Origin: an uncultured bacterium
GTDB lineage: Bacteria > Chloroflexota > Anaerolineae > Anaerolineales > UBA4823
Length of the DNA: 64,000 nt
NCBI GenBank assembly: GCA_965603285.1
Contig: CBFDCK010000002.1
Coordinates: forward strand, 410 to 64,409
Reading direction: 5' to 3'
The translations under genes were made by a program, and so were the position numbers. A model generated the notes under the pieces. That model saw nothing but the letters and a program-made list of their open reading frames with translations, had not been told where the DNA came from and made no database searches. Shown one piece after another: positions 21,217-47,030 of this stretch; the stretch's first letter is position 1; every line of letters begins with the position of its first letter.

Positions 21217-21248
21217 AACCTGCCCATCTACATGAGCAGGTTATTTTT
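21217..21248. terminator. Orphan hairpin plus T-tract next to the tRNA-Asp remnant
   Basis: Stem aacctgc/gcaggtt with a 12-nt loop, followed on the + strand by atttttatt. No + strand gene lies upstream. It lies just 3' (minus sense) of the tRNA fragment. Confidence 0.35.
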
Positions 21249-21261
21249 ATTATTTGAAATT

Positions 21262-21293
21262 CAGGCGGTCCTGACAGGAATGAACCCATCTGG
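21262..21293 (-). repeat. Degenerate copy of the 3' part (T-arm plus acceptor) of tRNA-Asp; candidate distal att repeat
   Basis: caggcggtcc is identical to 46731-46740. The next 17 nt match 13/17 (ctgacaggaatgaaccc vs ccgacgggattcgaaccc-type). After a 3-nt gap, atct.gg matches. aaatt just outside is also shared. Confidence 0.6.
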
Positions 21294-21595
21294 AATTAAA
21301 TTTAGGGGATAGAAATCGGTGTCGGTGTTTGGACCTAATGTTTCAAAAAAAAGAGTCCATTTAGCGTGCTTGAGAGCACACTTTTTCTGTTTTACAAAAT
21401 GCTCGCTTTTGTTTTTTAGTAGTTATCGGTCATACTCGTAGTATGCAAATACTTCATATTCAGTTGCCTGCCAGGTAAGTGTATCTCCTTGCGGGGTGAT
21501 TGTGCCAGCACGTACATTGATGCTCCCTAAATCCACGCTAACATAAACACCATTTGTATAATTCGTATGTATTCTTGATCGCTTTTTTGTTTCAA

Positions 21596-21618
21596 AAAGC
21601 CCTGATCTTCGGGGCTTT
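21596..21618 (-). terminator. Possible terminator hairpin after the ROK kinase gene
   Basis: 7-bp stem aaagccc/gggcttt 6 nt after the stop codon. The T-tract is weak. Confidence 0.3.
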
Positions 21619-21623
21619 GATCT

Positions 21624-22589
21624 TTATTTAAGGCTTTCAACTGCCCACATTGCTGCACCGATTACCCCTGCGTTTCCACCCAGTTGGGCTTGAAGAACTT
21701 CGACTTGTCCCACTGGCATGATAGTCACCCTCTCACGGAGTGTGCGCCGAATTGGCGCCAGAATTGGTTCACCAATTTGGGCCACTCCACCGGCAATTAC
21801 GATCTTGCGCGGTCCAATCGAAACGCAGACATTGGCAACCGCGATACCAATGTAGAATCCAGCATCTTCGATGATGGTCTGTGCTATTTCATCACCTTGC
21901 GCGGCGGCTTGGGCAATTACCCCGGGGGAAATTTTGTTAAGATCGTAATCTACCAACTCACCAATGATAGTGGTGCGACCCTGACAGACAGCTTTTATGC
22001 CATTAGCGGAAATCGTTGAGCCAGATGCATATGCTTCCAGACAACCGCGGTTGCCGCAACCGCAAGTAGGTCCATTGTAATCAATGATCTGGTGTCCCAA
22101 TTCGCCGCCCGTACCACCAATACCTAGGTGTAAGCGACCATTAATGACCAATCCACCGCCAATCCCAGTTCCAATCGCGAAGCAAGCCATCGTATCGACA
22201 CCTCTGCCAGCGCCAAAGCACCATTCCCCATAAGTGATTGCACGCGCATCGTTGATTATTGCCGTTGGCAACCCGGTGTAGTCAGCAATCGTGTCTCTTA
22301 AAGGCACCTCAGGCCAGGTTCCTGGCAGATTAGGCAATAAGAGCGTAAATCCACGTTCAAGGTCCAGCACTCCCGGCACACCGATGCCAATGCAGCGGAT
22401 GTCCTTTTTTGACAGGTCACCATCATTGACGACTTGCTCAATTAGCGCGCCCATGCGCGCCATCACGGCAGCATGACCTTCGCGCGCAAGGGTTGGGGTG
22501 GATCGCAGGTGATACACCTGCCCGCTTTCCAGATCGACAATTCCGGCGCGCAGGTTGGTACCACCCAGATCACAACCGATTATCTTCAT
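21624..22589 (-). CDS. ROK-family sugar kinase (glucokinase-like)
   Basis: Start taken at MKIIGCDLGGTN (ATG 22589), 1 nt after the upstream stop. Canonical ROK signature GELGH...CGCGNRGCLE. Confidence 0.85.
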   Translation of the reverse strand: MKIIGCDLGGTNLRAGIVDLESGQVYHLRSTPTLAREGHAAVMARMGALIEQVVNDGDLSKKDIRCIGIGVPGVLDLERGFTLLLPNLPGTWPEVPLRDTIADYTGLPTAIINDARAITYGEWCFGAGRGVDTMACFAIGTGIGGGLVINGRLHLGIGGTGGELGHQIIDYNGPTCGCGNRGCLEAYASGSTISANGIKAVCQGRTTIIGELVDYDLNKISPGVIAQAAAQGDEIAQTIIEDAGFYIGIAVANVCVSIGPRKIVIAGGVAQIGEPILAPIRRTLRERVTIMPVGQVEVLQAQLGGNAGVIGAAMWAVESLK

Positions 22590-22590
22590 A

Positions 22591-23505
22591 TTATTTAATG
22601 TAAGGACGCAGCACATCGCGGGACAATAAGAAACCTCGCTTGATTAAATCTTCGGTCTTTTCGAAAGCACGGTCCTCATGTTCGATGCTGATGACGTAAT
22701 CGTAGCCAACCCGGTAAAGCGCAGATATGAATTTGCCCCAATCGATATCGCCTAAACCGGGCAAGCGGGGTATCTGCCAGCCCATCCCTTGAGAAAGTAC
22801 ACCATTTTGGTAGAGACCCTCATGGTCAATCTCCATGTCCTTGGCGTGGACATGAAAAATCTTATCCCTGAACTCGTAGACCACGCGTTGGTAATCGATC
22901 ATCTGCAAGATCAGGTGTGAGGGGTCAAGATTCAAGCCAAAGTTATCATCGGGAATAATCTCCCACATTTTCTTCCAAATTGCAGGAGAACTGGCAAGGT
23001 TATTTCCGCCGGGCCATTCGTCGCAAGAGAAGATCATGGGACAATTTTCGATGGCGATATTGACTTGGTGCTCAGCACCAAATTTAACAATCGGGGGCCA
23101 GATTTCAGCAAAATCTTCCAAATTTTCTGGTAAGGTCTTATTCTTATCCTTGCCCACGAAAGTTCCCACGATAGGCACTTCAAGCAGTTCCGCTGCCAGG
23201 ATGACTTTCTTGAGATGCCCAATAACCACATCGCGGTGTGCGGGGTCCGGGTGCATGGGGTTGGGGTAGTAACCTAAAGATGAGATTAACAGTCCGTAAT
23301 CTTTCAAGACAGCATGAACTTCTTTTGCTTGGGCTACATCAAAATCGTTCAAATCGATGGTGGTAATACCGGCGTAGCGGCGAGCGGCTTTTTCGAGCGG
23401 CCAGCAAGCGATCTCCAATGTTTCAAAGCCACTTTCAGCAGACCAGGCTGCTACTTCTTCGAGTGGTTTGCCAGGAAATGCTGCAGTGAAAATTCCAAGT
23501 TTCAT
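22591..23505 (-). CDS. Sugar phosphate isomerase/epimerase (xylose-isomerase-like TIM barrel)
   Basis: 304 aa with AP_endonuc_2/XylI-like TIM features (MKLGIFT..., HVHAKD, SIEHED). Confidence 0.85.
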   Translation of the reverse strand: MKLGIFTAAFPGKPLEEVAAWSAESGFETLEIACWPLEKAARRYAGITTIDLNDFDVAQAKEVHAVLKDYGLLISSLGYYPNPMHPDPAHRDVVIGHLKKVILAAELLEVPIVGTFVGKDKNKTLPENLEDFAEIWPPIVKFGAEHQVNIAIENCPMIFSCDEWPGGNNLASSPAIWKKMWEIIPDDNFGLNLDPSHLILQMIDYQRVVYEFRDKIFHVHAKDMEIDHEGLYQNGVLSQGMGWQIPRLPGLGDIDWGKFISALYRVGYDYVISIEHEDRAFEKTEDLIKRGFLLSRDVLRPYIK

Positions 23506-23528
23506 AATTTATCCTCCAATAATATTAA

Positions 23529-24689
23529 TCAGATGGTGACATCAACCCACTCACCTTCTTTGGCGCTGTGTTCAATTGCCTCACAGAGCACCTGCTCGTA
23601 GTGTCCATCGGCAAAAGTGGGGAAATCTGTCGGGGCAGAATAATCTCCTGCTAAGATGTAGTTATAAACTTTGTTGTATAGTTGCTTGAAAGTATCTGGA
23701 AAGCCCTCATTGTGACCGCCGGGATAAGAAGCGGTGGTACGCGCTTCTGGAGAGAGCAGCGAGGGATCTTTCATCAAAACCTGGTTTGGTTGTGAGCGAT
23801 GCCCGATCCATAATTCGTTGGGGCGTTCCCCATTCCAAACCAATGAGGATAGCGAGCCATTGATCTCAAAGAAAATGCGATTCTTGCGACCAGAGCTGAT
23901 CTGTGAAACCGTCAAAATACCGCGGGCGCCATTTTCGTAATGCAGCAGCACGCTGGCATAATCTTCGGTGTGGATCGGTTTATCTTCGTAATCTTCAGGG
24001 GGCAATAATTTTCCGGTGAACGTTTCCAATGGTTTGAGTGGTTTCTTGCGAATTGGGTGGAAGGTCTTGAAATCGGCGTAAACTTCTTTGACTTTCAGAC
24101 CAGTGATAAAGGTCATCAGATCCAACCAGTGGGAACCAATATCCCCAATGGCGCGCAGCGTACCACCTAGCTCAGGCTCCAGCCGCCAATTCCAATCTGT
24201 AGGCAGCAGCAGCCAATCCTGAAGATAAGAACCTTGCAAGATGAAAATATCGCCCAAATCACCGTTTTGAACCATTTGGCGAGCTTGCTGTGCCATCGGG
24301 TAGAAGCGGATATTGAAGTTAATGACATTGACCAATTCTGTCTTCCGCGCAATTTTGACCAGATCGGCGGATTCCTGGCTGTTCATCGCCAGGGGTTTCT
24401 CACAAACGACATGCTTCCCGGCCTCCAGAGCAGCTTTGGCATGGGGGTAGTGTAAGTAGTTGGGGGTTGCCAGATGAATCACGTGAATATCTGGATCAGC
24501 CAGCATCTTTTCATAAGATGGATAGGCTTTTGTTATGCCTAATTCTGCAGCTTTATCCGATGCTAATTCTGTAGTCGCCTCCGCCAAACCGATCACCCGC
24601 ACATTATTTCGGCGCAACGCCTCCAGATGGGCTGGGCCGATGAATCCGGTGCCGACAATGCCAACATTGAGAGAATTTTTATCGATCAT
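23529..24689 (-). CDS. Gfo/Idh/MocA-family NAD(P)-dependent oxidoreductase
   Basis: N-terminal Rossmann motif [10 protein letters not shown] and the EKP motif (VVCEKPLA). Confidence 0.85.
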
Positions 24690-24740
24690 TCAACACTCCT
24701 TGATAAAACCTAACTGAGGGATATCTTTAGCAAGTAAAGG

Positions 24741-25487
24741 TTAGTAAGCTCCGGGATCTGAGTCATGTGGGGTTTCTATCTCCTGGTCATCTTGCTGAAT
24801 TTTGAATGTATCCAGGATCAAAGCGGTAGCGGTAGCACCACAGCGTGTGACACCCGCATCGATGACTTCGAGCAATGCGGGCAGTGTACGAACCCCACCG
24901 GCGGCCTTCACCTGCACTTTTTCGCTGACATTGGCCCGCATCAGGCGCAGATCATCAAGCGTTGCCCCGCTCGGTGCGAAACCCGTGGAAGTTTTTACCC
25001 AATCAGCCCCGGCTTCTTCACACAATTTACAAGCAGTCACTTTTTCTTCATCGGTGAGATAAGCATTCTCTAAGATAACTTTAACTTTCACCCCACGTGC
25101 ATGGGCAACATCACAAACTGCTTTTATATCCTCGCGCACATAGTTATATTTTCCAGAACGTAATTGGCCGATATTGAGAACCATATCCAGTTCCTTAGCA
25201 CCCTCATCCATGGCCAATTCAGCCTCAACCACCTTGACAGCAGTCAGGTTGCTCCCATGCGGGAATCCCACAACCGTGCTGACCAACACATCCGAATCTT
25301 TAAGCACTTCAGCAGCCAGATTGACATGGCAAGGTTTTACACAAACCGTCGCAACATGGTAACGGTGAGCCAGTTCGCACCCTTCAATAATATCTGTTTC
25401 GATTAATTCAGGTTTGAGTAGAGAATGGTCTATAACCTTGGCGAGTTGTTCATACGTAATCGTCTTACTATTTAGTGCGGTTGTCAT
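24741..25487 (-). CDS. deoC: DeoC/LacD-type class I aldolase (deoxyribose-phosphate aldolase-like)
   Basis: Start taken at MTTALNS (ATG 25487), 4 nt after the upstream stop. IDHSLLKP, VCVKP and the Schiff-base lysine context VKTSTGF. Has an acidic C-terminal tail. Confidence 0.8.
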   Translation of the reverse strand: MTTALNSKTITYEQLAKVIDHSLLKPELIETDIIEGCELAHRYHVATVCVKPCHVNLAAEVLKDSDVLVSTVVGFPHGSNLTAVKVVEAELAMDEGAKELDMVLNIGQLRSGKYNYVREDIKAVCDVAHARGVKVKVILENAYLTDEEKVTACKLCEEAGADWVKTSTGFAPSGATLDDLRLMRANVSEKVQVKAAGGVRTLPALLEVIDAGVTRCGATATALILDTFKIQQDDQEIETPHDSDPGAY

Positions 25488-25491
25488 TATG

Positions 25492-26577
25492 CTAGTTTCC
25501 TTGTTTCCATAAATCGATTGGTTTTGCTGCCGTTGGCGGGTCATATGGAAAGATAATTTTGCGCCCCTCCCCGGCTGACTGGTAGGCAGCATAAATGATT
25601 TTCAATACTTCACGGCCGTCCTGACCTGTTTCCATACAAGTTTCCTTACCGAGCACACAATTGATGAAATGCTGCATTTCCTGCGGGAAACCGTAGTTCC
25701 AAATCTCTTCGAACATGGTGAAGGTATAGCCTTTAGTGGCGCCGGATTTTTCTACAGCATAACCATAACCTTCTTCGGAGTAAGTGAGCAGTGAACTTCC
25801 ACGTAAGAGATCTGCGCGGGTGTGGCCTTTCACCCCATAAATCTCACAGCGATCATCAACGCCGCCACCTTTAGCCCAACTATTTTCCAGCATAGCGACT
25901 TTTCTATCCTCGTATTCGACGATTGTATAAGAATGATCTTCACCTTCAGTGCGATCCTGATGGATATATGTATCCATGAAAGCAGTGACGCTTTTGACTT
26001 TAGGCTTGCCTAACACCCAGCGAGTATACTCGATGGAGTGACAGCCCATATCCATCATTACGCCGCCCCCAGAGCGATTCACATCCCAAAACCAGGGCAT
26101 GTGTGGTCCAGGGTGCTCCTCAGACTGTTTAGCGAGGAACGGCTCCCCAATTGCACCCTCGTCAATTAGAGTCTTCGCCCGAACATACTTAGGCGCGAAG
26201 AGCAGCTCCTCTGCGTACATCAAGAGAACCCCAGCCTGATTGCAGGTCTCGATCATCTCATCAGCCTCTTCCAGGGTGACGCAGAGCGGTTTTTCAATTA
26301 TGACGTGTTTTCCAGCTTTAGCAGCATCTACGGTCACTTGGCAATGCAGGTCGTTGGGAATTCCCACAACTACAACATCGATATCTTTGTCTTCCAACAT
26401 TTCGCAGTGGTCACGATAAGCATCAGGAATGCCGCGTTCTTTAGCAAAAGTTTCAGCATTATTGGGGCTTACCACGGCAACCACTTCGGCGTTATGCACC
26501 CAATCTTTGATAGCAGCATAGTGGATATCGCTAACAAACCCCGCACCGACCATACCAACTTTTACTTTTTTGCTCAT
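25492..26577 (-). CDS. Gfo/Idh/MocA-family oxidoreductase
   Basis: VGMVGAGFVS Rossmann motif and EKPL motif. 361 aa. Confidence 0.85.
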   Translation of the reverse strand: MSKKVKVGMVGAGFVSDIHYAAIKDWVHNAEVVAVVSPNNAETFAKERGIPDAYRDHCEMLEDKDIDVVVVGIPNDLHCQVTVDAAKAGKHVIIEKPLCVTLEEADEMIETCNQAGVLLMYAEELLFAPKYVRAKTLIDEGAIGEPFLAKQSEEHPGPHMPWFWDVNRSGGGVMMDMGCHSIEYTRWVLGKPKVKSVTAFMDTYIHQDRTEGEDHSYTIVEYEDRKVAMLENSWAKGGGVDDRCEIYGVKGHTRADLLRGSSLLTYSEEGYGYAVEKSGATKGYTFTMFEEIWNYGFPQEMQHFINCVLGKETCMETGQDGREVLKIIYAAYQSAGEGRKIIFPYDPPTAAKPIDLWKQGN

Positions 26578-27081
26578 GGGATACTCCTAAACAATATAAA
26601 TTCCTTTGAAATAAATATCCGAAACCGCGCTGACGTCCATAAATTGGGATGAGGACAAGTTGTGATTCTCTAGTGAACACCACGATCAGGGACTTTGCGA
26701 ACGCCTTTATGGACCATTCACGCTCATTTATCCCAAAATTTTCTTCGCCACACCTCTGCCAGAGCTACCTCTGATCCGATTAGAAACTGCAACTCATGGT
26801 CTTACACAGCTTGGTACAACCCATCGGAATTATGGATGTTTCGAACAAGGTTAACCCGTCTTGACAATAGTCTTCAGCGGCATAGAATCTAGAGACCTTT
26901 CCAATTTTACCCGATATTCTCCCGTAGTATGTAAATATTTCATACCAAATGATATCCCCAGATATTTGGTATTCTGCAAACTCGTTTTAGGCCAAAATCC
27001 CCTGGCTGTATCTTTATTACTGCAAATCGATCCGTTTGTAATAGTTGTAAAGTCCGGCATCGCGCATTTCAGCGAAAGCTA

Positions 27082-28047
27082 TCAAAGATTGAGAGTGTCT
27101 CTAGTAATCAATATAGCGCCAACCAGCACGATCGAATCTCCCAATTCACACTTACCGATCTTATAGTTTTTATGGCTGCTTATGAATTCATATTTCTGCG
27201 CATATTTTTTGATCGGCTCGATCAGCAGATCTCCCATATTCGATACTCCGCCACCAATTGCAATCACTTCCACATTCACCAAGCAAAGCATATTCGCGAG
27301 TCCCAAACCCATTGAATAAGCAATCAGATCGATCTCTTTTAATGCGAATTCATCACAGGCGCGTGCCGCCTCCACCAGCTTGCGAGCATCGATAGCCTGG
27401 GCATCCCCGCCGGCCAACTCCATCAGGAACGAGTCATGGGGGACATATTTTGCCGTTCGCAAACGTTCTTCAATCGCCCAACCCGAACACAGGTTTTCTA
27501 TCTTTTCGGGTTTGCCCGGCTGGTCATGGGTCCAATCCGGCACATAAGTTTGCCCAAATTCTCCAGCGCCATATCCTTGACCATCATACAACTGTCCATT
27601 AATTACAATTCCGCCACCTACTCCGCTGCCCATATTGGTATAAAAGAAATATCGACTACCAACGCCGCTGCCATTGTTATATTCCCCCCAAGTAGCTGCA
27701 TTCGAATCATTGGCGATGACGGTTGGCAAGTTGAACTTCTCCTCAAACCAGGCTTTTAACGGAAAACCGCTCCAGCCGGGTATCTGCACCGATTTCAAAA
27801 CTTCGCCCTTAGCAGAATCGATCGGTCCGCCAAACCCACAGCCCAGCGCAACCAATTCTCCTTTCAGGTCACTAACTCTGGAAAACATCGCCGGTATATG
27901 GTCTTCAAGCCATTCCTGGATGCCTCGAGCGCCCGCATCGACATTCACTCTTCCCTGGTGTGTGTCAAGAATTTCACCATCACGGGAACTGATCGCTAAT
28001 TGAAGCTTGGTACCCCCGATTTCTACACCCAATATATATTTTTCCAT
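27082..28047 (-). CDS. Divergent ROK/ASKHA-type sugar kinase-like protein lacking the canonical zinc motif
   Basis: Start taken at MEKYILGVEIGGTKL (ATG 28047). The usual GEIGH..CxCGxxGC is replaced by GEFGQTYV...LCSG. Confidence 0.7.
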   Translation of the reverse strand: MEKYILGVEIGGTKLQLAISSRDGEILDTHQGRVNVDAGARGIQEWLEDHIPAMFSRVSDLKGELVALGCGFGGPIDSAKGEVLKSVQIPGWSGFPLKAWFEEKFNLPTVIANDSNAATWGEYNNGSGVGSRYFFYTNMGSGVGGGIVINGQLYDGQGYGAGEFGQTYVPDWTHDQPGKPEKIENLCSGWAIEERLRTAKYVPHDSFLMELAGGDAQAIDARKLVEAARACDEFALKEIDLIAYSMGLGLANMLCLVNVEVIAIGGGVSNMGDLLIEPIKKYAQKYEFISSHKNYKIGKCELGDSIVLVGAILITRDTLNL

Positions 28048-28180
28048 CTGATATGCTCCATCTTTTATATTATGCCCTGAAAAACATGTCATTCGGTTTG
28101 GCTGCATCCAAATCAGATATGGATAGCACATATTCCAATTATTTGTACGGTCAAACTAGCACTTATTGTTTCATTGCCCC

Positions 28181-28197
28181 ATAGATACGGATATATA
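28181..28197. promoter_or_regulatory. Candidate operator repeat, copy 1 (atagatacggatatata)
   Basis: 17-mer repeated 16/17 at 28253-28269, in the divergent region between the ROK-like gene and the GntR gene. Confidence 0.4.
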
Positions 28198-28220
28198 CTG
28201 CTATTTTCTGCCTTATTGGC

Positions 28221-28249
28221 TTGACAAAGGCGAAATTTGCCATTATTAT
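28221..28249 (+). promoter_or_regulatory. Sigma-70-type promoter for the GntR/sugar operon
   Basis: TTGACA (28221-28226), a 17-nt spacer, then TATTAT (28244-28249), about 70 nt upstream of the GntR ATG. Confidence 0.5.
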
Positions 28250-28252
28250 AAA

Positions 28253-28269
28253 ATAGATACGGATGTATA
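28253..28269. promoter_or_regulatory. Candidate operator repeat, copy 2 (atagatacggatgtata)
   Basis: Begins 4 nt after the -10 box, so it overlaps the expected transcription start. 16/17 identical to copy 1. Confidence 0.4.
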
Positions 28270-28317
28270 ACTAGGTGATTCCACCTTCAAGATTATATCA
28301 AGGATTTGGAGAGCGGA

Positions 28318-29085
28318 ATGCAATTCAGACAAAAAAGCGTTGAAGATATTGGCATCAAATCTGTAGATGAAAATAGCCCCATCCCGTTTTATCAACAGGT
28401 GCATATGGATCTATTGAATCTGTTGCAATCGGGTAAACTTCAGCCTGGAGATATGCTCCCCACTGAAAAAATACTCAGCGAAGCCTATCGTGTTGGTCGC
28501 CAAACTCTCCGTGAAGCCGTTACACGCTTGGTAAATGAAAATTTGCTGGAACGAACGCAGGGGCGCGGCACCGTCGTTTTGGCGGGTCAAAACCGCTTGA
28601 AATTCTTTTTGGATCGCAGCTTTGCCAAACAGATGATCGAAATGGGGTTAACCCCGCATTCCGAAGTTTTGCGTATCAATAGAGGACATATAGATGAAAC
28701 TTCTCCCTCTTCCCTACACAGCAAAATAGGGAGCAATTCCTTAGAATTGATCCGCCTCCGTTTTGGGGATGACACCCCCATCGGCGTGCAGTATACAACC
28801 ATCATCACCGACGCATGTCTGGAGTTAGGTGATGAGGATTTCGAAAAAGAATCATTGTACAGCTTGCTGCTGACCAAATACCGATTGTTAATCACCAGGA
28901 TTGACCACGTGGTCAGTGCCGTACTGGCTGATGAATGGCACAAATCCTTATTGAAATTTTCTGGGACTGCCCCCTTGCTGTTGGTTCATACGACTGCATA
29001 CCTTGATAACGGTGAGCCTATCGAGGCTTCCACCAGTTACTACAAAGCGGATAAATATGAATTCAGTGTTATTCAGAAATACTGA
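28318..29085 (+). CDS. GntR/HutC-family transcriptional regulator (wHTH plus UTRA domain)
   Basis: N-terminal GntR wHTH (LPTEKILSEAYRVGRQTLREAVTRLVNENLLER) and a UTRA-like C-terminal domain. ATG 28318 is preceded by GGAGAG. TTG 28306 is an alternative. Confidence 0.85.
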   Translation: MQFRQKSVEDIGIKSVDENSPIPFYQQVHMDLLNLLQSGKLQPGDMLPTEKILSEAYRVGRQTLREAVTRLVNENLLERTQGRGTVVLAGQNRLKFFLDRSFAKQMIEMGLTPHSEVLRINRGHIDETSPSSLHSKIGSNSLELIRLRFGDDTPIGVQYTTIITDACLELGDEDFEKESLYSLLLTKYRLLITRIDHVVSAVLADEWHKSLLKFSGTAPLLLVHTTAYLDNGEPIEASTSYYKADKYEFSVIQKY

Positions 29086-29141
29086 TATTCTCAAGAGCAA
29101 TATCCTAACCTTAAAAAAGTCTACTAATAAAGGAGTGCAAA

Positions 29142-30110: not shown

Positions 30111-30133
30111 TCGCCCACAAGGAGGATTGAGCG

Positions 30134-31165: not shown

Positions 31166-31182
31166 TCCACGGAGAACAAAAC

Positions 31183-31905: not shown

Positions 31906-31940
31906 AAAATACCAAACACAAGCATCAATTAATATTGTAG

Positions 31941-33000: not shown

Positions 33001-33209
33001 CCAAGTATCAAAAAACACCACTTTATATCTAAACATAATTAATAGTTAAGTAATTGCTGTGGCAGAAAAAAGAACAATATTATCTATGATAGAATCTGCC
33101 AATTACGATGCCAAATGAAGAGGAGGTGGTTGTTGGAAAATGCACACAAGTACGGCCTAAGTAAATCCGTTTCAACAAAAGTATAAAAACTAACTATAAG
33201 GAGAATTGA

Positions 33210-35372: not shown

Positions 35373-35387
35373 TCTGTTCTCCAACTA

Positions 35388-35423
35388 GGTTCTCTGGCGA
35401 TCGATCGCCAGAGAACCTTTTTT
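35388..35423 (+). terminator. Intrinsic terminator after the SBP gene
   Basis: Perfect 30-nt palindrome ggttctctggcgatcgatcgccagagaacc followed by tttttt. Confidence 0.8.
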
Positions 35424-35515
35424 CATTATTGTAATATCGCAAGATCATTTTTTGGGGATCCATCAAGCCATTGGTATAATTGGATAATTGCTAATCAAAA
35501 CGTAATGGAATAAAT

Positions 35516-38036: not shown

Positions 38037-38038
38037 TC

Positions 38039-39025
38039 ATGAGTGAAAATATCCAATCCTCTGAAAAGAAGAAATTCACCATATCGCCGCAAGTTACCGC
38101 TCTGCTGCTGGCTTTACTTTTGTTCTTAGCTAGTGGATTTTTGCCCAACGGGTTCAATTCAGTAGATACTGCAATCAACCAGGCTTTTAACATTTTGCGT
38201 CTTTCCTCCTTCCTGGCATTGATCGCCGCCGGGCAGACCTTGGTGATCATAAGTGGTGGTGAAGGTATTGATTTGTCCGCGGGTGCAATCGTTACTATCG
38301 CAGTGTTGATCACCTACAAACTAGTTAACGGTGACAATTCTTTAGTGCTGCCTGTATTATTGTTCGTGATCGCCTGCGGTGCAGCGATTGGATTGATCAA
38401 CGGTCTGGGGATCGCTTACCTTAAGATCCCCCCATTTGTTATGACCCTCGGTATGGCAGGGGTTGTAATAGGCACCTTGCTAGTCGTAACTCGCGGCCTT
38501 TACGATGGAAAAGTTGCGCCGATCATGACAAATATTATCGCTCGCGATCTGGTTTGGGGGATTCCGGGTATGTTGTTCTTGTGGATTATTTTCGGTGTAT
38601 TGATGACGATCTTATTGGAACGCACACGTTATGGTAAACAGCTCTTTGCTATCGGTGTGAACCGACTGACTGCCCGTCTGTCCGGTGTGCGTGTTGATCG
38701 AATGGTAGTCTCCACTTACACCATCGCCGGCGCATTAGCTGCCTTTTCGGGATTCATTCTGGTCGGCTTTACGCAGAACGCCGGTCTGCTGGTTGGCAAC
38801 CAATATCTGTTCCCCTCCATCGCGGCGGTTGCAATCGGCGGCACGCTGCTGTCTGGCGGCAAGGGCAGTTATTTCGGCACGATGGCTGGCGCCATCGTGA
38901 TCCAACTGATCACCAGCTTGCTTACCACCATGCAGTTACCGGAAGCGATCCAACAGATCGTTTACGGCTCGATCCTGATAGTCCTTTTGATCGTTTATGG
39001 ACGTGAGAAAGGAATACGACTGTAA
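38039..39025 (+). CDS. ABC transporter permease (RbsC-like), second subunit
   Basis: 328 aa, polytopic. Starts 3 nt after the previous stop. Confidence 0.9.
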   Translation: MSENIQSSEKKKFTISPQVTALLLALLLFLASGFLPNGFNSVDTAINQAFNILRLSSFLALIAAGQTLVIISGGEGIDLSAGAIVTIAVLITYKLVNGDNSLVLPVLLFVIACGAAIGLINGLGIAYLKIPPFVMTLGMAGVVIGTLLVVTRGLYDGKVAPIMTNIIARDLVWGIPGMLFLWIIFGVLMTILLERTRYGKQLFAIGVNRLTARLSGVRVDRMVVSTYTIAGALAAFSGFILVGFTQNAGLLVGNQYLFPSIAAVAIGGTLLSGGKGSYFGTMAGAIVIQLITSLLTTMQLPEAIQQIVYGSILIVLLIVYGREKGIRL

Positions 39026-39297
39026 TTTCAATCCAAAACCGCAATAAAATCATGGATAAATCACCTCAACTGAAGCCTCGACTTCTTCTCATAATTCAGG
39101 AATTGAGGCTTCAATTGCAGATGTAATTTACATTCTTTAAGACATCCTGGTGTGGGTGGAATGGAAGCCTGATGCTGTAACTGACCCATTTTGACCAAGG
39201 TCTCGATTCCATTAAGCAAACGCCTACATTGGATTTGCCATATACTATTATTCACAACTCAATCATATCCAAACCAGAAGAATCAGAGGAGATAAAA

Positions 39298-40485
39298 ATG
39301 CACAAGATCAGCTTGCTTGGCGCAGGATTCATTGGAATGTTCTACACACAGACGATCAACCGCAGTCGGTCTAAAGACGTAGTCTCGGTAGTTTACAATC
39401 GCACTCCTGAAACAGCCAAAGAATTCGCCAATAAATATAAAATCCCGCACTGGACCGGAGACATGGATGAAGCCATCAACGATCTAGAAACGGACGTTGT
39501 CGTAATCGGGCTGCCAAATTTCGAACACAGGGAAGCAGCCATCAAAGCTGCCAAAGCAGGTAAGGTCGTCTTATGCACAAAACCCTTAGCCCGCTCTGGC
39601 AAAGAGGCTAAAGAGATACTCGATGCCGTTGAAAAAGCCGGTATATTCCACGGTTATTTAGAGGATTTGGTCTACACCCCCAAAACATTAAAAGCGCTGG
39701 CTGCAGTGAAAGCCGGATCGATTGGTCGGGTGCTGTGGACACGCTCAAGAGAAACCCATCCTGGTCCGCACTCACCCTGGTTTATAGATAAAGAGCTTGC
39801 TGGCGGAGGAGCATTGATAGATATGGGCTGCCACTGCGCAGAGATCTGCCGCAGCTTTATCGGCAAAGATGTCAGACCGATGCAAGCCTTCGCTCACCAC
39901 GATACGATGGTACACCCAATCGCTGCCGAGGACTTCTCGATCGGCTTGGTCCGTTTTGAGAACGGCGCGGTCGGGCAGATCGAATCAAGCTGGACATTCA
40001 GAGGCGGCATGGACCTGCGCGATGAAGTATCCGGCACAGAAGGCACGATCTGGCTCAATCACTGGCTGCGTACTGGCTTTGAAATGTTCTCTTCAGGTGG
40101 CGGTCAAGGGTATGTAGCTGAAAAAGCTGAACTAGAGCAGGGCTGGCTTTTCCCGGTCGGCAATGAAGAAGATTCCTTAGGCTACGTTGAAATGTTCAAC
40201 GATATGTTCGACAGCATCGACAATAGCACAAAACCAACAGAAGACTTTTACGATGGATATGTCGTCAACTGCATACTAGATACCCTGTATAAATCCGCAC
40301 AATCCGGAAAATGGGAACCTGTCGAGATCGAAGATTGGCGCGGCGGCAAACATGAAAAAGTGATCACGACCACTGATTATGATGATGAACACATCATTAT
40401 CAAAGAAGAAAGAATGCCTGATGGAAAAATCAAATTGATCCTTCAGCATAAAGAAACCGGCAAAGTAACCCAGATCTTTAAATAA
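39298..40485 (+). CDS. Gfo/Idh/MocA-family oxidoreductase
   Basis: Start taken at [13 protein letters not shown] (ATG 39298, AGAGGAG upstream). VLCTKPLA motif. Has a C-terminal extension of about 50 aa. Confidence 0.85.
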
Positions 40486-40546
40486 TCACTACACTCTAAC
40501 TTGCTGTTCATTGTCAGAAAAATGAATCGCGCTGAGTAAAAATTTC

Positions 40547-41698
40547 ATGAACTCAAAAGAGCGCCTTCAATCTACCTTGTCACACCAAATTCCAGATCGT
40601 ATCCCCTTCGATCTCGGCGGGTCGCCAATGTCTGGTATCCATATCGCTGCCTATGAAAAATTGATCAAATATCTTGGGTTTGACGATCTCGAAACCGAGG
40701 TCTATGACCATATTCAACAACTGGCGCTCCCCCATGAGCAGGTATTAAAACAGCTTGAGGTTGATATCCGGACCATCAGATCAAGCAGCCCGGTTTCTTT
40801 CAAGCTGGATATTCAAAATATTGGAGACTATACCGAATACACGGATGAATGGGGAGTACGTTGGCGGAAGCCTCTTGTGGGTGGTTTTTATTATGACATG
40901 GTTTTCCACCCACTTGAATATGCTCAAAACCTAACGGAGCTCAGGGATTATACCTGGATAAATCCGGATGATGAAAGCCGCTACTCTGGTCTGGAAGAAA
41001 TAGCCGCTAATTACGCCAATAACGGATTAGGTGTAATGCATTGGTCAATTGGACCCGGCGTATCCGAAACACACGCCTGGTTGCGCGGCTATGAAAAATA
41101 CTATACTGATTTTTATTTAAATCCGGATATCGCTGAGACCATTATGTCAAAAGTTGTGGACATCAAGATCGCATACTGGAAAAACGCCTTATCCAGATCA
41201 GGCAAACACATAGATGTGGTCGTTGAAGCGGACGATTTGGCTGGACAGAACGGGCCGTTGATCTCCCCCAAGGCGTACCGTCAGTTCATTAAACCCCAGC
41301 ATACCCGCCTTTTTTCGGCCATCAAAAAGATCGCGCCACATGTGAAAATATTTTTCCACAGCTGTGGTGCAGTCCACGACTTTATTGGTGATTTCATCGA
41401 AAGTGGCATTGACATTCTCAACCCCGTGCAAAAATCGGCGACGGGAATGGACTTGCAGCAGTTAAAGCAAGAATTTGGTAAAGATGTCGTTTTTTGGGGT
41501 GGCGGTGTCGATACCCAAAGGGTATTCGATGGCGATGATATCAAGGCGGTCAGAGTAGATGTGCGCCAGAACATCACAACCCTGAAACCAGGCGGAGGAT
41601 TTGTATTCACACCTGTGCATAACACCCAGGCCAATGTACCCCCACAGAATTACATGGCAATGTGGGAAACGCTCCAAGAAGAAGGTCTTTACCGGTAA
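40547..41698 (+). CDS. Uroporphyrinogen-decarboxylase (URO-D) superfamily protein, MtaA/CmuA-like
   Basis: 383 aa. N-terminal ERLQSTLSHQIPDRIPFD. TIM-barrel-like length. HSCG (H-x-C) motif at KIFFHSCGAV. Not in a heme-biosynthesis context. Confidence 0.7.
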   Translation: MNSKERLQSTLSHQIPDRIPFDLGGSPMSGIHIAAYEKLIKYLGFDDLETEVYDHIQQLALPHEQVLKQLEVDIRTIRSSSPVSFKLDIQNIGDYTEYTDEWGVRWRKPLVGGFYYDMVFHPLEYAQNLTELRDYTWINPDDESRYSGLEEIAANYANNGLGVMHWSIGPGVSETHAWLRGYEKYYTDFYLNPDIAETIMSKVVDIKIAYWKNALSRSGKHIDVVVEADDLAGQNGPLISPKAYRQFIKPQHTRLFSAIKKIAPHVKIFFHSCGAVHDFIGDFIESGIDILNPVQKSATGMDLQQLKQEFGKDVVFWGGGVDTQRVFDGDDIKAVRVDVRQNITTLKPGGGFVFTPVHNTQANVPPQNYMAMWETLQEEGLYR

Positions 41699-41709
41699 AA
41701 AGAGTAAAC

Positions 41710-42549
41710 ATGTACAGCAAACGAAATTATCTGAACAAAAGCTATATCGAGATCATCAATCCAAACATTACACGCGGCAAGATCAAGTTCGCCATTTTTG
41801 ATTTTGACGGCACTATCTCCTTGATCCGCGAGGGTTGGCAACAGATCATGATCTCCATGATGGTTGATATCCTTATGCAAATACCAGAGCATGAAAGCCG
41901 GGACGAGATCGAAATAATCGTGCGTACCTATGTAGCCAATACAACAGGGAAACAAACCATCTACCAGATGATCCGCTTAGCGGAAGAGATCGAAAAAAGA
42001 GGCAGCGTGCCCCAAGAACCGCTGGCATATAAAAATCTATATCACGATCTGCTGATGAAGCGCATCATTGAACGGCTGGACGGCTTGCGCAGCGGTGATC
42101 TCCAACCAGAAGATTGGGCTGTGCCCGGCGCATTAGATATGCTGGCTGTTCTGAATCAGTATGAGGTCACTCACTTCCTGGCTTCCGGCACTGATGAAAA
42201 ATACGTGTTAGATGAAGCCGATCTTTTAGGCGTTTCGAAATACTTCGTCGGTATATATGGCGCATTAGATGATTACAAGAATTTCTCAAAAAAGATAGTC
42301 ATTCAAAAGATCATCAAAGACAACCAACTCAGCGGTCCCGAACTGGTCGGTTTCGGTGATGGTTACGTGGAAATTGAAGACACCAAAGCGGTCGGCGGTA
42401 TTGCCGTTGGGGTTGCCACCAATGAAACCGAACGCCAAGGTATTGATGAATGGAAGCGTGAGCGGTTAATCTCTTCTGGCGCAGATATCATTATGCCTGA
42501 TTTCCGCCAATATCAATATCTTATTAATTATTTAATGTTGGAGAAGTGA
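41710..42549 (+). CDS. HAD-superfamily hydrolase (phosphatase-like)
   Basis: Start taken at MYSKRNY (ATG 41710). Motif I FDFDGTIS, a capped HAD layout, and the late motif GFGDGYVE. Confidence 0.7.
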   Translation: MYSKRNYLNKSYIEIINPNITRGKIKFAIFDFDGTISLIREGWQQIMISMMVDILMQIPEHESRDEIEIIVRTYVANTTGKQTIYQMIRLAEEIEKRGSVPQEPLAYKNLYHDLLMKRIIERLDGLRSGDLQPEDWAVPGALDMLAVLNQYEVTHFLASGTDEKYVLDEADLLGVSKYFVGIYGALDDYKNFSKKIVIQKIIKDNQLSGPELVGFGDGYVEIEDTKAVGGIAVGVATNETERQGIDEWKRERLISSGADIIMPDFRQYQYLINYLMLEK

Positions 42550-42551
42550 AC

Positions 42552-43526
42552 ATGCCTTACCCCATTTTTGACCGCTCGAAATTGACTTTACTCTCGCTAT
42601 CAGATCGGGAACATGACCTATCCATGGATGTAATCCTAGACTTATCAGATGTGATCCCCACTTTTGAGAACGGGAATTTAGAAACTCTCGCCAAGCGCAT
42701 CGTTAAAGCCCACCAGCGCGGAGCAGCTGTGATCTTTTTAATGGGCGCCCATGTGATTCGCAGCGGCGTATCTCGTTTTCTGATCGACCTGATGGAAAAA
42801 GGAATGATCGACCTGATCGGATGCAACGGGGCAGTCACCATTCACGATATGGAATTTGCCATGATCGGCAAAACGACTGAGAGTGTTGCCAGGTATATTC
42901 AGGTCGGGCAGTTTGGTCTGTGGAAAGAGACCGGTCGGGTAAATGATGCCGCTAAATTCGCTTACGAGCATGGTCTTGGTCTGGGTGAATCAATTGGCAA
43001 AATGATCCATGACAACCCCGACGAATTCCCAAATAGCGATATAAGTGTGTTGGCAACCGGCTACGGCCTGGGCATCCCAATCACCGTGCACGTTGGCATT
43101 GGACAAGACATCGTTCACGAACACCCGAACTTTGACGGGGCTGCTTACGGCGCGGCCAGCTACCGCGACTTCCTGACGTTCGTCAACTGCGTCGAAAACC
43201 TGGAGGGAGGCGTGATGCTCAATATTGGTACAGCCGTGATGGGACCAGAAGTGTACCTGAAGGCATTGGCAATGGCCCGCAACGTAGCGATGCAGGAGAA
43301 TCGAGTGATTAAACATTTCACCACAGGCGTTCTTGATATAGTCGACCTGGGAGAAAACCCAGGAAAAGAAGCCCCAAAAACCGACGCCGTTTATTATTTC
43401 CGGCCATTTAAAACAGTCTTAGTGCGTACCGTTGCCGATGGTGGTGAGAGTTATTATGTCAGAGGAAATCACCGGGTAACCGTTTCCAATCTGCACCGTT
43501 TGATTTTAGAAAACCTTCAGGCGTGA
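42552..43526 (+). CDS. Deoxyhypusine-synthase-like (DHS-like Rossmann fold) family protein, function unknown
   Basis: The segment FLMGAHVIRSGVSRFLIDLMEKGMIDLIGCNGAVTIHDMEF resembles the DHS core (G..SSG.R......L......VD..VTT.G..E.D). GIPITVHVGIG resembles IPVFCPA.TD.S.G. The assignment is tentative. GTG 42546 is an alternative start. Confidence 0.45.
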   Translation: MPYPIFDRSKLTLLSLSDREHDLSMDVILDLSDVIPTFENGNLETLAKRIVKAHQRGAAVIFLMGAHVIRSGVSRFLIDLMEKGMIDLIGCNGAVTIHDMEFAMIGKTTESVARYIQVGQFGLWKETGRVNDAAKFAYEHGLGLGESIGKMIHDNPDEFPNSDISVLATGYGLGIPITVHVGIGQDIVHEHPNFDGAAYGAASYRDFLTFVNCVENLEGGVMLNIGTAVMGPEVYLKALAMARNVAMQENRVIKHFTTGVLDIVDLGENPGKEAPKTDAVYYFRPFKTVLVRTVADGGESYYVRGNHRVTVSNLHRLILENLQA

Positions 43527-43530
43527 GATT

Positions 43531-44583
43531 ATGGAAAACAAAAGGCTTGAAAAAATCCTTACATCTTTCCCGGAAGGAAAGATCGCCGTTCTGGGTGATT
43601 TCTTCCTCGACCTGTACATATCATTGGATCGGTCCTTATCCGAGCTTTCACTGGAAACCAATTTAGAAGCATTCCAGGCTGTGGACATCAAAGACCTTCC
43701 AGGCGCTGCGGGCGTGGTAACCAATAACCTGGTCGCTCTAGGAGCCAGCACATCTGCGATCGCATACACCGGTGATGACGGCAACGGCTACATGCTGCGT
43801 AAAGAACTGAGCCAACGGGGCGTTAACATCGAACACCTGCTGCAATCTACAGAACGCTTCACGCCTACTTATATAAAACCGATGATGACCGAAGTGGCTG
43901 GCTCCACGATTGAGCTCAACCGCATCGATGTCAAGAACCGCACACCTAATTCCTTAGAACTGGAAAATGAGATCATCCAGCGGATTAGAGTTGCCATTAA
44001 GGATCATGATGGCATCTTGGTCGCTGAGCAGGTCAAAGATGATAGCTGTAGTGTGCTCTCGCCGCGTGTGCGCATGGCGCTGGCGGATATATCGCTAGCG
44101 AATCCCGACAAAGTATTTATTGTAGATTCCAGGCATTTCACCGCCAAATATGAGCATGTCTCGCTCAAAGTGAATTTATTCGAAGCCATTAAAGCCGCTG
44201 GCGAGCTTAATGCTCGATTCCATACTCAAAAGAAAGCCGACAAGCTGGAAACAGCCATAATCTGCCAGCGCTTGCTATGGAAAAAGGTCAAAAGACCAAT
44301 TTTCATCACCCTTGGATCAAAAGGCATCAGCGGCTACGCAGATGGGGAAGATTTTTATCATCCCGGATATCACACCACTGGACCAATCGATATCGTCGGC
44401 GCTGGCGATTCGGTACTGGCTGGCTGCGGGGTATCCCTATGTGCCGGCGCTATGCCTGAGGAAGCTGCCTATATCGGCAATCTGATCGGTTCGATCACCA
44501 TTGAACAAATCGGCACGACCGGTATTGCCACGCCAGAACAGCTGCTTGAAAGACATTACGAATACCAAAAACAAAACCACTAA
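43531..44583 (+). CDS. PfkB-family carbohydrate kinase, HldE/RfaE kinase-domain-like
   Basis: 350 aa. N-terminal VLGDFFLDLY...PGAAGVVTNNLVALGA resembles heptose-7-P kinases. PfkB signature DIVGAGDSV. Confidence 0.8.
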   Translation: MENKRLEKILTSFPEGKIAVLGDFFLDLYISLDRSLSELSLETNLEAFQAVDIKDLPGAAGVVTNNLVALGASTSAIAYTGDDGNGYMLRKELSQRGVNIEHLLQSTERFTPTYIKPMMTEVAGSTIELNRIDVKNRTPNSLELENEIIQRIRVAIKDHDGILVAEQVKDDSCSVLSPRVRMALADISLANPDKVFIVDSRHFTAKYEHVSLKVNLFEAIKAAGELNARFHTQKKADKLETAIICQRLLWKKVKRPIFITLGSKGISGYADGEDFYHPGYHTTGPIDIVGAGDSVLAGCGVSLCAGAMPEEAAYIGNLIGSITIEQIGTTGIATPEQLLERHYEYQKQNH

Positions 44584-44607
44584 CTTCATGCAAAAGGAAA
44601 ATCAAAT

Positions 44608-45177
44608 ATGAAAGCTTATCAAGATATCATCGTTGACTACATTGATGACCTAAAATCCGTTTTGGACCAACTCTCCAAACCGGATCTCCTGGCGATCATC
44701 AACGCACTGGCAAAAGCCCGCCAGGATGAAAAAACTATCTACATTTGCGGCAACGGCGGCAGCGCGTCTACCGCCAGCCACATGGTTTGTGACCTCTCAA
44801 AGAACACCCGTAAAGATGAAGCTAAACGCCTCAAAGTGATCGGATTATCCGATAACATAGCCTTAATGACCGCCTATGCCAATGACGAAGGCTATGACCG
44901 AATTTTTGCCGAACAGATCATATCCTTGATCCAGCCGGGTGATGTGCTGCTGGCTATCAGCGGCAGCGGAAACTCTCCTAATGTGTTGCTCGGTGTAGAA
45001 ACCGCCAAGCAAATCGGCGCCACAACAATCGGGCTGACCGGTTTTCAAGGCGGACAGCTTATAGAGTTGGTCGATATTTGCCTGATTGTTCCCTACAACA
45101 GTCTGGAACAGATCGAAGATGTGCATTTGATTATCAACCACATCCTGACCATCAGCCTTGGGCAGGGCAAAGCATAA
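44608..45177 (+). CDS. SIS-domain sugar-phosphate isomerase (GmhA/DiaA-like)
   Basis: 189 aa. YICGNGGSASTASHMVCDL and ISGSGNSPNV motifs. Confidence 0.8.
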   Translation: MKAYQDIIVDYIDDLKSVLDQLSKPDLLAIINALAKARQDEKTIYICGNGGSASTASHMVCDLSKNTRKDEAKRLKVIGLSDNIALMTAYANDEGYDRIFAEQIISLIQPGDVLLAISGSGNSPNVLLGVETAKQIGATTIGLTGFQGGQLIELVDICLIVPYNSLEQIEDVHLIINHILTISLGQGKA

Positions 45178-45185
45178 AAAAGAAA

Positions 45186-46319
45186 TTGAACGCCCGCCAA
45201 CGTGTCATCCAGACCTTAGACCACCAACTGCCCGACCGCGTCCCTCTGGCAATTTGGGGTGGTCCGTATGGCATTGTGGACGAACTCTACTTCAAGCTGC
45301 TGCCCTTATTGGGTTTAAGCGAGCCCGTCGCACCCTTCCGCCAAGGCCACACCGTCAATCATATCGATGACCGCGTCTTGAAAAAACTGGGCGCTGACAT
45401 TCGCTACGTTTGGCCGGGAGCCTCGCCTACCAGCCCGCGTTACCCAACTGATGACCCTGATATCTTCCTGGATGGCTTCGGTCAGAAGTGGATCCAAACC
45501 TTCCCATACTTCACCGCCACAGATGGGTTGCTAAAACAAGCCCATTCAATCTCGGAAATCGATGAACTGGTCAATTGGCCGGATACCAGCAAACCCGAAT
45601 GGACTGCAGGGGTAGCTGAGCGATCGTGCATACTGGCAAAAGACGGAGAATACTACATTGCCGCCCGCATGGTCGTCTCGCATGGTCCCTTTCAGCTTGC
45701 CTGTGACCTACGCGGCGCTGCCGAATTCATGCTGGATATGGTGATGAATCCAGATTTCGCCGCCGCCCTGCTGGACAAAGTCACCACTACCATCTGCGGC
45801 TTGACCGATGCTTACATGCAATCGGGAGGCCAATATTATGACCTGATCGAACTTCCCGGCGATGACTATGCCAGCAACGTCAACCTGATTATCTCCCCCA
45901 AGATGTTCCGGGATTTCATCAAACCCTGCATTAAACGCATGGTGGAGACTATCCGCGCACACAAGTCAGATATCAAGATCATGTTGCACTCGGATGGCGC
46001 AATTCAAAAATTGATCCCAGATTTCATTGAACTCGGGATCGATGTGCTGCACCCACTGGAACCTGTTTCTGGTATAGATGTAGCTGCCGTAAAACACGAA
46101 TTCGGGCAGCAGATCGCTTTCATTGGCGGTATCGATATTTCCAAAGCCATGCCGGGTAATCTGCAAGACGTGTGTACAGACGTGGATCGCTGTATTCGGG
46201 ACCTCGCTCCCAGGGGAGGGTACATAATGGCACCCTGCAATCATTTACAAGCTGATGTGTCTCCCGAAAATGTGATTGAAATGTTCAGTTACGCGTGCGA
46301 GAACGGTAGATATAAATAG
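45186..46319 (+). CDS. URO-D superfamily protein, second paralog
   Basis: TTG 45186 gives MNARQRVIQTLDHQLPDRVP, co-linear with the N-terminus of the first paralog. HSDG replaces HSCG. Has the C-terminal motif APCNH. Confidence 0.7.
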   Translation: MNARQRVIQTLDHQLPDRVPLAIWGGPYGIVDELYFKLLPLLGLSEPVAPFRQGHTVNHIDDRVLKKLGADIRYVWPGASPTSPRYPTDDPDIFLDGFGQKWIQTFPYFTATDGLLKQAHSISEIDELVNWPDTSKPEWTAGVAERSCILAKDGEYYIAARMVVSHGPFQLACDLRGAAEFMLDMVMNPDFAAALLDKVTTTICGLTDAYMQSGGQYYDLIELPGDDYASNVNLIISPKMFRDFIKPCIKRMVETIRAHKSDIKIMLHSDGAIQKLIPDFIELGIDVLHPLEPVSGIDVAAVKHEFGQQIAFIGGIDISKAMPGNLQDVCTDVDRCIRDLAPRGGYIMAPCNHLQADVSPENVIEMFSYACENGRYK

Positions 46320-46734
46320 ATCGTGACTATGCGCATTTCTATGCTTTTTTCTTTAACTCCTCTAACAAGCTCGCGATAACCCAGAATTGGTCACCATGAT
46401 ATCGGCTTCATCAAAGTCGTAAACCCGGGTCAAACCTTTCCTGTCAATCTTCTGCGACCGCAACTCGGTCACACTTACACATCGTGCGTTCCATGCTGCC
46501 TTAAAGCGGTATCGGATCGTAACACCCCTCGTTATTCATCAAGTTATGCGTGAAAAAACGACTTTAACCACCCGATAATTGTGAAAGAACCCGTAGTACA
46601 CATATACTTCAGGCAAACTTTTTTCGCAATGCATAATCATTCTCAGGCTCCTCGATACATGTCGAATTAATATAAAAAAGCCCGGAGAGCGAAATAATCT
46701 TTCCGAACTTTCTGTCATACTAAAATTGCACAGG

Positions 46735-46809
46735 CGGTCCCGACGGGATTCGAACCCGCGATCTCGGCCTTGACAGGGCCGCGTGTTAAACCAGCTACAC
46801 TACGGGACC
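46735..46809 (-). tRNA. tRNA-Asp (anticodon GUC)
   Basis: Cloverleaf folded by hand: acceptor GGTCCCG/CGGGACC, D-arm GTGT..ACAC, anticodon stem CGGCC/GGCCG with loop CTGTCAA, T-arm GCGGG-TTCGAAT-CCCGT, discriminator G. It is followed by CC (the full CCA is not encoded). Confidence 0.9.
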
Positions 46810-47030
46810 GTGCGGGCAGAAGTTTACCATACGCAAGATTTAGCGTCAAGTGAAATGACTTTTCGCCTACTCCTAAGTACCCTCAATATATAAATCCGAA
46901 ACCTCGCCGTGCGAAATCAATTCCATGAATCCTGGATGATCTTCACTAATTTTCAGATCAGTTCATTGCCCTCCATGTGTGGGAAACTCGACCATCGTCG
47001 TTGTACATAAATCGAATCATGCATCGATCG

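Follow-up and report, generated by a model that had tools for sequence, protein, structure and literature searches.

A block of carbohydrate genes in the genome of an uncultured Anaerolineales bacterium (group UBA4823) was found to be an insertion at the 3' end of a tRNA-Asp(GUC) gene. The block (21288-46730) lies within a 64,000-nucleotide stretch of contig CBFDCK010000002.1 (assembly GCA_965603285.1), which was analysed as a whole and is called the window here; all positions are those of the window unless a contig is named. We consider it likely, at a probability of roughly 0.8, that the block is a fossil tRNA-gene (tDNA) island, created by one ancient integrase-mediated insertion and afterwards deprived of its mobility module by deletions that clipped the cargo as well. 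A preliminary description of this DNA had proposed an old, immobilised tRNA island acquired horizontally, and that proposal is borne out by empty sites in relatives, steps in the GC content of third codon positions (GC3), the lack of any recombinase and the site shared with two related contigs, L068 and L053.

Empty sites and the two ends of the block

The comparison with relatives that the preliminary description had suggested, a search for tRNA-Asp followed directly by the flank carrying the PBP2 gene, gave a positive result twice. Among 39 loci encoding relatives of the dehydrogenase-CBS domain fusion (GDH-CBS) of the other, acs-side flank, the nearest was L007, a contig of the Chloroflexota metagenome-assembled genome (MAG) CSMAG_2478 (GenBank JAUWPO010000069.1). 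By BLAST, L007 2-6805 aligned with 53761-46957 of the window (93.8% identity, acs-side flank), 6806-6947 with 46873-46732 (99.3%, tRNA-Asp and its leader) and 6922-11978 with 21287-16229 (92.5%, PBP2-side flank). The second and third segments overlap by 26 nt on L007, and this overlap is the repeat that bounds the block. An intact tRNA-Asp thus runs directly into the PBP2-side flank in L007, with the junction exactly at the repeat, and relative to this empty site the insertion measures 25,469 bp, one repeat copy counted. When a second empty site was sought in the JGI metagenomes with a pattern that matches only an empty junction, an independently assembled contig, L054 (JGI Ga0209986_10007743), was recovered with the same junction; its identity is 92.9% to the window and 93.3% to L007. 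The same scan revealed no empty allele of the window's own species in the JGI metagenomes, the only match being this 93% lineage. Joined artificially, the empty junction (attB) reads ...CCCGTCGGGACCGCCTGAATTTCAAATAAT... and the circular junction (attP) ...CCAGATGGGTTCATTCCTGTCAGGACCGCCTGTGCAATTTTAGTATGAC....

The tRNA-Asp gene is the sole tRNA gene in the window. It was placed on the minus strand at 46733-46809 by ARAGORN and at 46735-46809 by Rfam (69 bits), the latter being the position given in the preliminary description. It represents the regenerated, intact integration target: its sequence is the same as that of the tRNA in L007 and L054, and the lone mismatch of the 142-nt alignment falls at 46732, immediately beyond the gene. 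Read in tRNA orientation, the 3' end of the gene is ...GCGGGTTCGAATCCCGTCGGGACCGCC, followed by TG. A three-way alignment and a pattern search delimited the identity block at this end (attL, 46731-46757, minus strand) as GGGTTCGAATCCCGTCGGGACCGCCTG, which starts in the T-stem and ends 2 nt beyond the 3' end.

At the far end of the block lies attR (21262-21287, minus strand; GGGTTC-ATTCCTGTCAGGACCGCCTG), a displaced or duplicated tRNA-Asp 3' fragment established by alignment, shuffling and pattern search. Its 26 nt have the same orientation as the tRNA and agree with the tRNA end in 23 of 27 aligned columns, the differences being three substitutions and one indel, and the match closes with the exact 3' 10-mer GGACCGCCTG. 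Beyond a 3-nt gap a weaker match, AGAT, takes the repeat to 21293, and AATTT just outside the gene is common to both copies. The same-orientation copy that the preliminary description had placed at 21262-21293 is thus real, and the weaker match and the shared AATTT are as given there. The host flank starts immediately 3' of attR, as it does in the empty sites. As in tDNA islands in the general sense, an intact tRNA gene stands at one end, a same-orientation 3' fragment at the other, and relatives have an empty site whose junction falls at the repeat.

The repeat had been judged improbable by chance, and a scored alignment agreed. In a search of the rest of the window on both strands, attR was the top local alignment to the tRNA, with a score of 33 against 22 for the next best, while among 60 dinucleotide-preserving shuffles the mean score was 25 (sd 2) and the highest 30. 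A degenerate pattern allowing up to three mismatches matched only the tRNA end and attR in the window, and two hits were obtained in 0 of 100 shuffles. A chance match is in any case ruled out by the empty sites.

One might also suppose that attR is the residue of a once complete second tRNA-Asp gene and that the empty sites are the product of homologous recombination between a pair of full copies, which would give the same single-tRNA junction as in L007 and L054. We regard this as extremely improbable. On the 5' side of attR, no significant resemblance to the first 52 nt of the tRNA was detected (p = 0.29), whereas the 3' 27 nt retain 23 matches; uniform decay would not leave such a sharp edge, and foreign GC3 bounded exactly by the two copies would stay unexplained. 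As the similarity ends at about 32-35 nt, short of the 5' half of the tRNA, attR is a 3' fragment with a sharp edge and not a decayed whole gene.

Composition separated the block from its surroundings. Total GC was 41.5% in the left flank, 47.5% in the island and 44.9% in the right flank; the block is thus GC-richer, as had been claimed, but the 53-62% GC first estimated by hand was too high, since the GC-richest 2-kb window in the block reached 50.7%. The 22 island genes, taken from the open reading frames of at least 90 aa in the block, had a mean GC3 of 0.519 (range 0.441-0.595) and the 28 flank genes one of 0.370 (range 0.292-0.439). The two distributions did not overlap (Mann-Whitney U = 0, p = 2e-9), and GC3 stepped at both repeat boundaries. 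GC3 was used in place of total GC because total GC is a poor marker on the right side: a two-breakpoint fit to total GC misplaced the right boundary at 61.4 kb, the acs genes being GC-rich at codon positions 1 and 2. By tetranucleotide distance, every 4-kb window between about 20 and 48 kb grouped with the island, and so did the acs genes (54-62 kb). The difference in composition anticipated in the preliminary description was therefore found; on GC3 the block is unlike its host, as tDNA islands in the general sense are, and on total GC its right boundary is blurred.

The nearest homologous clusters outside an island context had GC3 values of 0.52 (L052, 80-85% nucleotide identity to 39334-46318) and 0.51 (L069, about 78% to 21452-26603), against 0.519 for the island, and the named homologues belonged to Anaerolineae, Anaerolineales or Anaerolineaceae. 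Most likely, therefore, the DNA was donated by a different bacterium of the same class with a higher GC content.

Age and direction of the insertion

Contigs of the same species (99.7-99.97% identity) spanned both junctions of the window, four on the tRNA side and two on the PBP2 side. As these six contigs come from at least five samples and several assemblers, the junctions are genuine and not products of assembly. The same-species contigs L048 and L049, which differ in sample and assembler, both stop exactly at 21162, about 100 bp before attR, and the same-species contig L005 stops at 46811, 2 nt upstream of the tRNA. Repeats or strain branching in the assembly graphs may lie behind these contig ends; those at 21162 are not explained by island presence or absence, because empty-site homology continues to 21287.

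Outside the species, the occupied site was seen in L068 (JGI Ga0589502_0603428), which is 93.7% identical to the window over 24202-21086 and covers the distal island end, attR and 176 nt of host flank. Its attR reads GGGTTTACTCCTGTCAGGACCGCCTG; the C>T and G>A changes are common to L068 and the window, and the T-loop part is different. A remnant of a ROK-kinase gene next to attR in the window is also present in L068. On the tRNA side, L053 (ENA ERZ25074835) is 91% identical over 44368-46457, and in it a similar gene-free stretch, without an integrase, runs into the 3' end of tRNA-Asp. The lineage with the island at the same site is thus represented by L068 and probably by L053, and the genes truncated at its island ends are those truncated in the window. 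Since both contigs carry the island there, the insertion predates the split from a lineage now about 6% diverged (about 15% in intergenic DNA), and the island has been inherited vertically from before that split.

The parsimony-informative sites of the 176-nt flank grouped the window with L068, against L007 with L054, by 6 to 2 to 2, and to judge from this grouping a single event on the internal branch would account for the whole pattern of occupied and empty sites. Such an event fits in either direction. The four lineages are nearly equidistant, at about 93%, and precise loss at the repeat is the product expected of an integrase or excisionase; the block might thus have been ancestral to all four and lost in the L007/L054 clade, through precise excision or recombination of one repeat with the other. 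This opposite polarity of the same island strikes us as unlikely. It would alter the timing only, as an earlier integration would still be needed to make the repeat, and the GC3 of the block remains fully unlike that of the host, so that the block is foreign in either case.

Mobility genes and the mode of integration

No recombinase, relaxase, transfer or phage gene was detected by NCBIfam and Pfam among the 22 genes of the block. Integrase remnants were sought with Pfam, at E-values up to 10, in the stop-free segments of 46300-46760, 21240-21640 and 26560-27100, and none was found; the end regions yielded remnants of a DeoR regulator and a ROK kinase instead. The absence of tyrosine and serine recombinases noted in the preliminary description therefore holds for the genes and for both end regions. 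In viral contigs, the 21-mer of the attR arm had no match, and the 3' 24-mer of tRNA-Asp had 13 matches, 11 of which were phage tRNA arrays. The viral contigs with a single tRNA, L064 and L066, gave no integrase in the open reading frames tested, which for L066 included those beside the tRNA. The further Anaerolineae loci L017 and L034 have a tRNA-Asp close by; the genes around it were ordinary and included no integrase. The island end sequences had no match in the phage database in distant mode.

Two other kinds of element were considered and rejected. A prophage or its remnant does not fit a block with no phage gene among 22 and with ends unmatched in the phage database. A composite transposon does not fit either, as the block is bounded by tRNA repeats and not by IS ends, and contains a single internal IS30 element (31940-33001).

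The viral contig L066 deserves a separate remark. Its positions 1-9415 (IMGVR_UViG_3300005836_000048) are provirus-like. At their start stands a tRNA-Asp whose 3' 24 nt are the same and whose leader is similar. The contig encodes a phage virion-morphogenesis-like protein, the genes adjoining the tRNA have no family match, and no integrase was seen on the part examined.

Integration that splits the target, island sequence that regenerates it and a displaced fragment that marks the far end are what define tDNA islands, and tyrosine-family integrases are the only ones known to target tDNAs (PMC4383910). From this geometry we infer that a tyrosine integrase performed the integration and was later deleted. 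The integrative element would have entered the chromosome of a marine-sediment Anaerolineales by site-specific recombination with the 3' part of tRNA-Asp(GUC). The target would thereby have been split and the tRNA regenerated by the incoming DNA (attL, 46731-46757), leaving the 26-nt copy of the T-arm to the 3' end (attR, 21262-21287) 25.5 kb away, beside the original downstream flank. All this would have preceded the separation of the window's lineage from the one now at about 6% divergence. Later, the genes for integration and transfer would have been lost, deletions or rearrangements would have clipped the cargo at both ends, as the DeoR and ROK remnants suggest, and attR would have drifted to 23/27, with the cargo and one later IS30 remaining.

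Known crossover sublocations in tDNAs are the anticodon loop, the T-loop and the asymmetric 3' end (bioRxiv 10.1101/2020.11.02.365908). The similarity block starts at the 5' arm of the T-stem and stops shortly beyond the 3' end, an extent that fits a T-loop crossover or, alternatively, one at the 3' end. With a T-loop crossover, the differences of attR from the tRNA would be decay of the displaced host copy; with a crossover in the exact terminal 10-mer, the mismatched part would have come in with the element.

Several points weigh against the fossil-island interpretation. Neither an integrase nor a remnant of one was found, so that the recombinase step is deduced from geometry alone. The crossover may lie at either of the two positions named above, and the attR mismatches may be decay or may have been present in the element from the start. 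Whether the event was a gain or a loss is judged from composition and on a weakly resolved four-taxon grouping over 176 bp of flank. Finally, the searches cover 64 kb of the genome, and an integrase acting in trans could be encoded elsewhere.

There is also a reading in which the block is not dead. By the published definition, a cis-mobilizable element (CIME; PMC5704250) has att-like sites at both ends and no genes for integration or transfer, as is seen here, and a second variant of the island, L053, likewise sits at the same tRNA without an integrase; the block might then have usable att sites and be moved by a helper element that supplies the integrase and transfer machinery and uses the same tRNA-Asp. 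We hold this to be very unlikely. With 23/27 identity and a T-loop part that differs between the carrier lineages, attR behaves as expected of unselected DNA, and the divergences of island and host flank are alike (91-94%), which fits vertical descent. Moreover, the metagenome scan described above gave no empty allele of the window's own species, and no helper element was seen, the attR arm being unmatched in viral contigs and the island ends in the phage database. A fossil island therefore remains our preferred interpretation of the block.

Cargo, flanks and comparison with known systems

The block had been described as accessory sugar genes with an ABC transporter and an IS30, and all 22 genes were indeed metabolic, transport, regulatory or IS30 genes. 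The cargo is a rearranged, three-piece mosaic of clusters for the uptake and breakdown of sugars, of a type widespread in GC-richer Anaerolineae. Segment A (21624-26577, minus strand) encodes a ROK kinase, a xylose-isomerase-like TIM barrel, a Gfo/Idh/MocA oxidoreductase, a DeoC aldolase and another Gfo/Idh/MocA oxidoreductase (NCBIfam, Pfam), and is colinear with L069 at about 78% nucleotide identity. Between it and attR, about 165 bp from the latter, lies the ROK-kinase remnant (21453-21575, minus strand), which comprises about 38 N-terminal codons and has no start codon; it matched the second ROK gene of L069 by tblastx (E = 1e-16) and by BLASTP (24/37 identities, residues 2-38).

On the other side of segment A, the 500-bp gap at 26578-27081 contains a rearrangement scar, the last 13 codons of an ABC permease gene (26621-26659, minus strand); 12 of the 13 residues are identical to the end of the L069 permease, a weak match (tblastx E = 0.006). 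Two homologous sugar clusters of other Anaerolineae have nickel-pincer cofactor genes between the two ROK kinases, L050 with LarE-like, LarB (AIRC) and LarC (Ni_insertion) genes (2254-5159) and L051 with LarC alone (4661-5830); at the matching place the island has just this scarred gap.

Segment B (27082-31905; NCBIfam) consists of a ROK kinase gene on the minus strand and, on the plus strand, genes for a GntR regulator, a TIM-barrel isomerase, a Gfo/Idh/MocA oxidoreductase and a DeoC aldolase. It is homologous to L051 131-4430. Between segments B and C lies an intact IS30-family insertion sequence (31940-33001, plus strand), the sole mobility gene of the island being its transposase (32039-32998; NF033563, 317 bits). 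Its terminal inverted repeats of 22 nt (31940-31961 and 32980-33001) are 86% complementary, and no clear target-site duplication was seen. Its GC3 of 0.441 is the lowest in the island, which suggests that the IS30 came in after the island.

Segment C (33210-46319, plus strand; NCBIfam, Pfam) begins with a tandem-domain sugar-binding protein, an ABC ATPase, two permeases and a Gfo/Idh/MocA oxidoreductase, and continues with a URO-D-like protein, a HAD hydrolase, a GSU2086-family protein, a PfkB kinase, a SIS isomerase and a second URO-D-like protein. In L052 the corresponding cluster goes on into another gene, and no tRNA was found on that contig. The binding protein (33210-35372) is a 720-aa fusion of two Peripla_BP_4 domains, a tandem form that also occurs in L069 (725 aa). 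In the sub-cluster at 40547-46319, the URO-D proteins are MtaA-like, the GSU2086-family protein has an ArgZ-like Rossmann domain, the PfkB kinase resembles domain I of HldE and the SIS protein resembles GmhA; together with the HAD hydrolase, the last two are reminiscent of the way in which heptose-nucleotide synthesis begins. No sequence relative of the URO-D-like or GSU2086-family proteins of the cargo was found among solved structures.

The interval beside the tRNA, 46320-46734, had been called non-coding. No intact gene lies there, but the C-terminal part of a DeoR-family regulator gene was recognised in it (46386-46530, minus strand), frameshifted and matching the DeoR gene of L050 (tblastx E = 6e-8; BLASTP 14/26 identities, residues 218-243 of 267). 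It is convergent with the URO-D gene, an arrangement found exactly so in L050 and L051. The 413 bp beside the tRNA thus consist of a clipped cargo gene and about 200 bp of island-end DNA.

Within this end, about 25 nt downstream of the tRNA, an island-borne hairpin followed by a U-run was predicted by RNA folding (46671-46712, minus strand; -20.3 kcal/mol, z = -2.6). It is conserved in the island variant L053 and was not called by a consensus terminator scan; it may replace the original terminator of the tRNA. That original terminator is probably the host hairpin at 21218-21245 (minus strand), which the alignments place 20 nt after the tRNA in the empty sites and which is now 25 kb from the gene, a function that we infer.

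Upstream of the tRNA leader, 83 bp (46874-46956) are present in the window and absent from L007 and L054, whose alignments skip from 46957 to 46873; they may represent a small insertion, a MITE-like element or a loss in the relatives. Next to them, beside the carbon monoxide dehydrogenase/acetyl-CoA synthase genes, lies the GDH-CBS gene (47031-48905), which encodes a 624-aa fusion of a Glu/Leu/Phe/Val dehydrogenase domain with CBS domains; relatives at 56-70% identity occur across many Anaerolineales MAGs and in some Desulfobacterota MAGs. The adjoining 422-aa protein (48922-50190) has no Pfam or NCBIfam match.

Two bolder proposals may be mentioned, though taken together they are a long shot. 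The integrase-less block could be a working, CIME-like catabolic hitchhiker that arrived separately in the lineages of the window, L068 and L053; or the cargo could represent an undescribed anaerobic sugar pathway. For the latter, the two URO-D/MtaA-like proteins, the GSU2086-family protein and the triad of GmhA-like, HldE-like and HAD proteins, acquired beside Wood-Ljungdahl genes, may be relevant.

As a fossil tDNA island, the block offers a base-pair-resolved case of a whole sugar-utilisation locus gained horizontally by an uncultured marine-sediment Anaerolineales, a group in which mobile elements are poorly documented. The sugar genes beside the Wood-Ljungdahl cluster are consequently not part of an ancestral core, which matters for metabolic inference from MAGs, and island finders that require an integrase will miss such fossils. 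The block is otherwise an ordinary, well-documented kind of genomic island and adds no new principle on tDNA islands.

In its regenerated tDNA, same-orientation 3' fragment, foreign composition, accessory cargo and empty site in relatives, the block resembles the tDNA islands found by Islander (PMC4383910). An Islander entry, however, requires a tyrosine integrase gene, and such islands are described as putatively active, whereas no such gene lies inside the block and its fragment has drifted; for these two reasons the block would be filtered out by the Islander algorithm. With CIMEs, which are decayed integrative and conjugative or integrative and mobilizable elements (ICEs or IMEs; PMC5704250), it shares att-like repeats at a tRNA 3' end and the lack of integrase, relaxase and transfer genes. 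CIMEs were defined in Streptococcus, where their derivation from ICEs is visible and helper mobilisation by accretion has been shown, while here there is no ICE or IME remnant, attR is degenerate and nothing points to recent movement. Within the Chloroflexota, the islands of Dehalococcoides at the ssrA tmRNA gene (PMC3146451) likewise combine catabolic or respiratory cargo with site-specific integration at a small-RNA gene. They differ in their target (ssrA), their host class (Dehalococcoidia) and their cargo, and they are described as mobilised site-specifically, whereas the tRNA-Asp block shows no sign of mobility.

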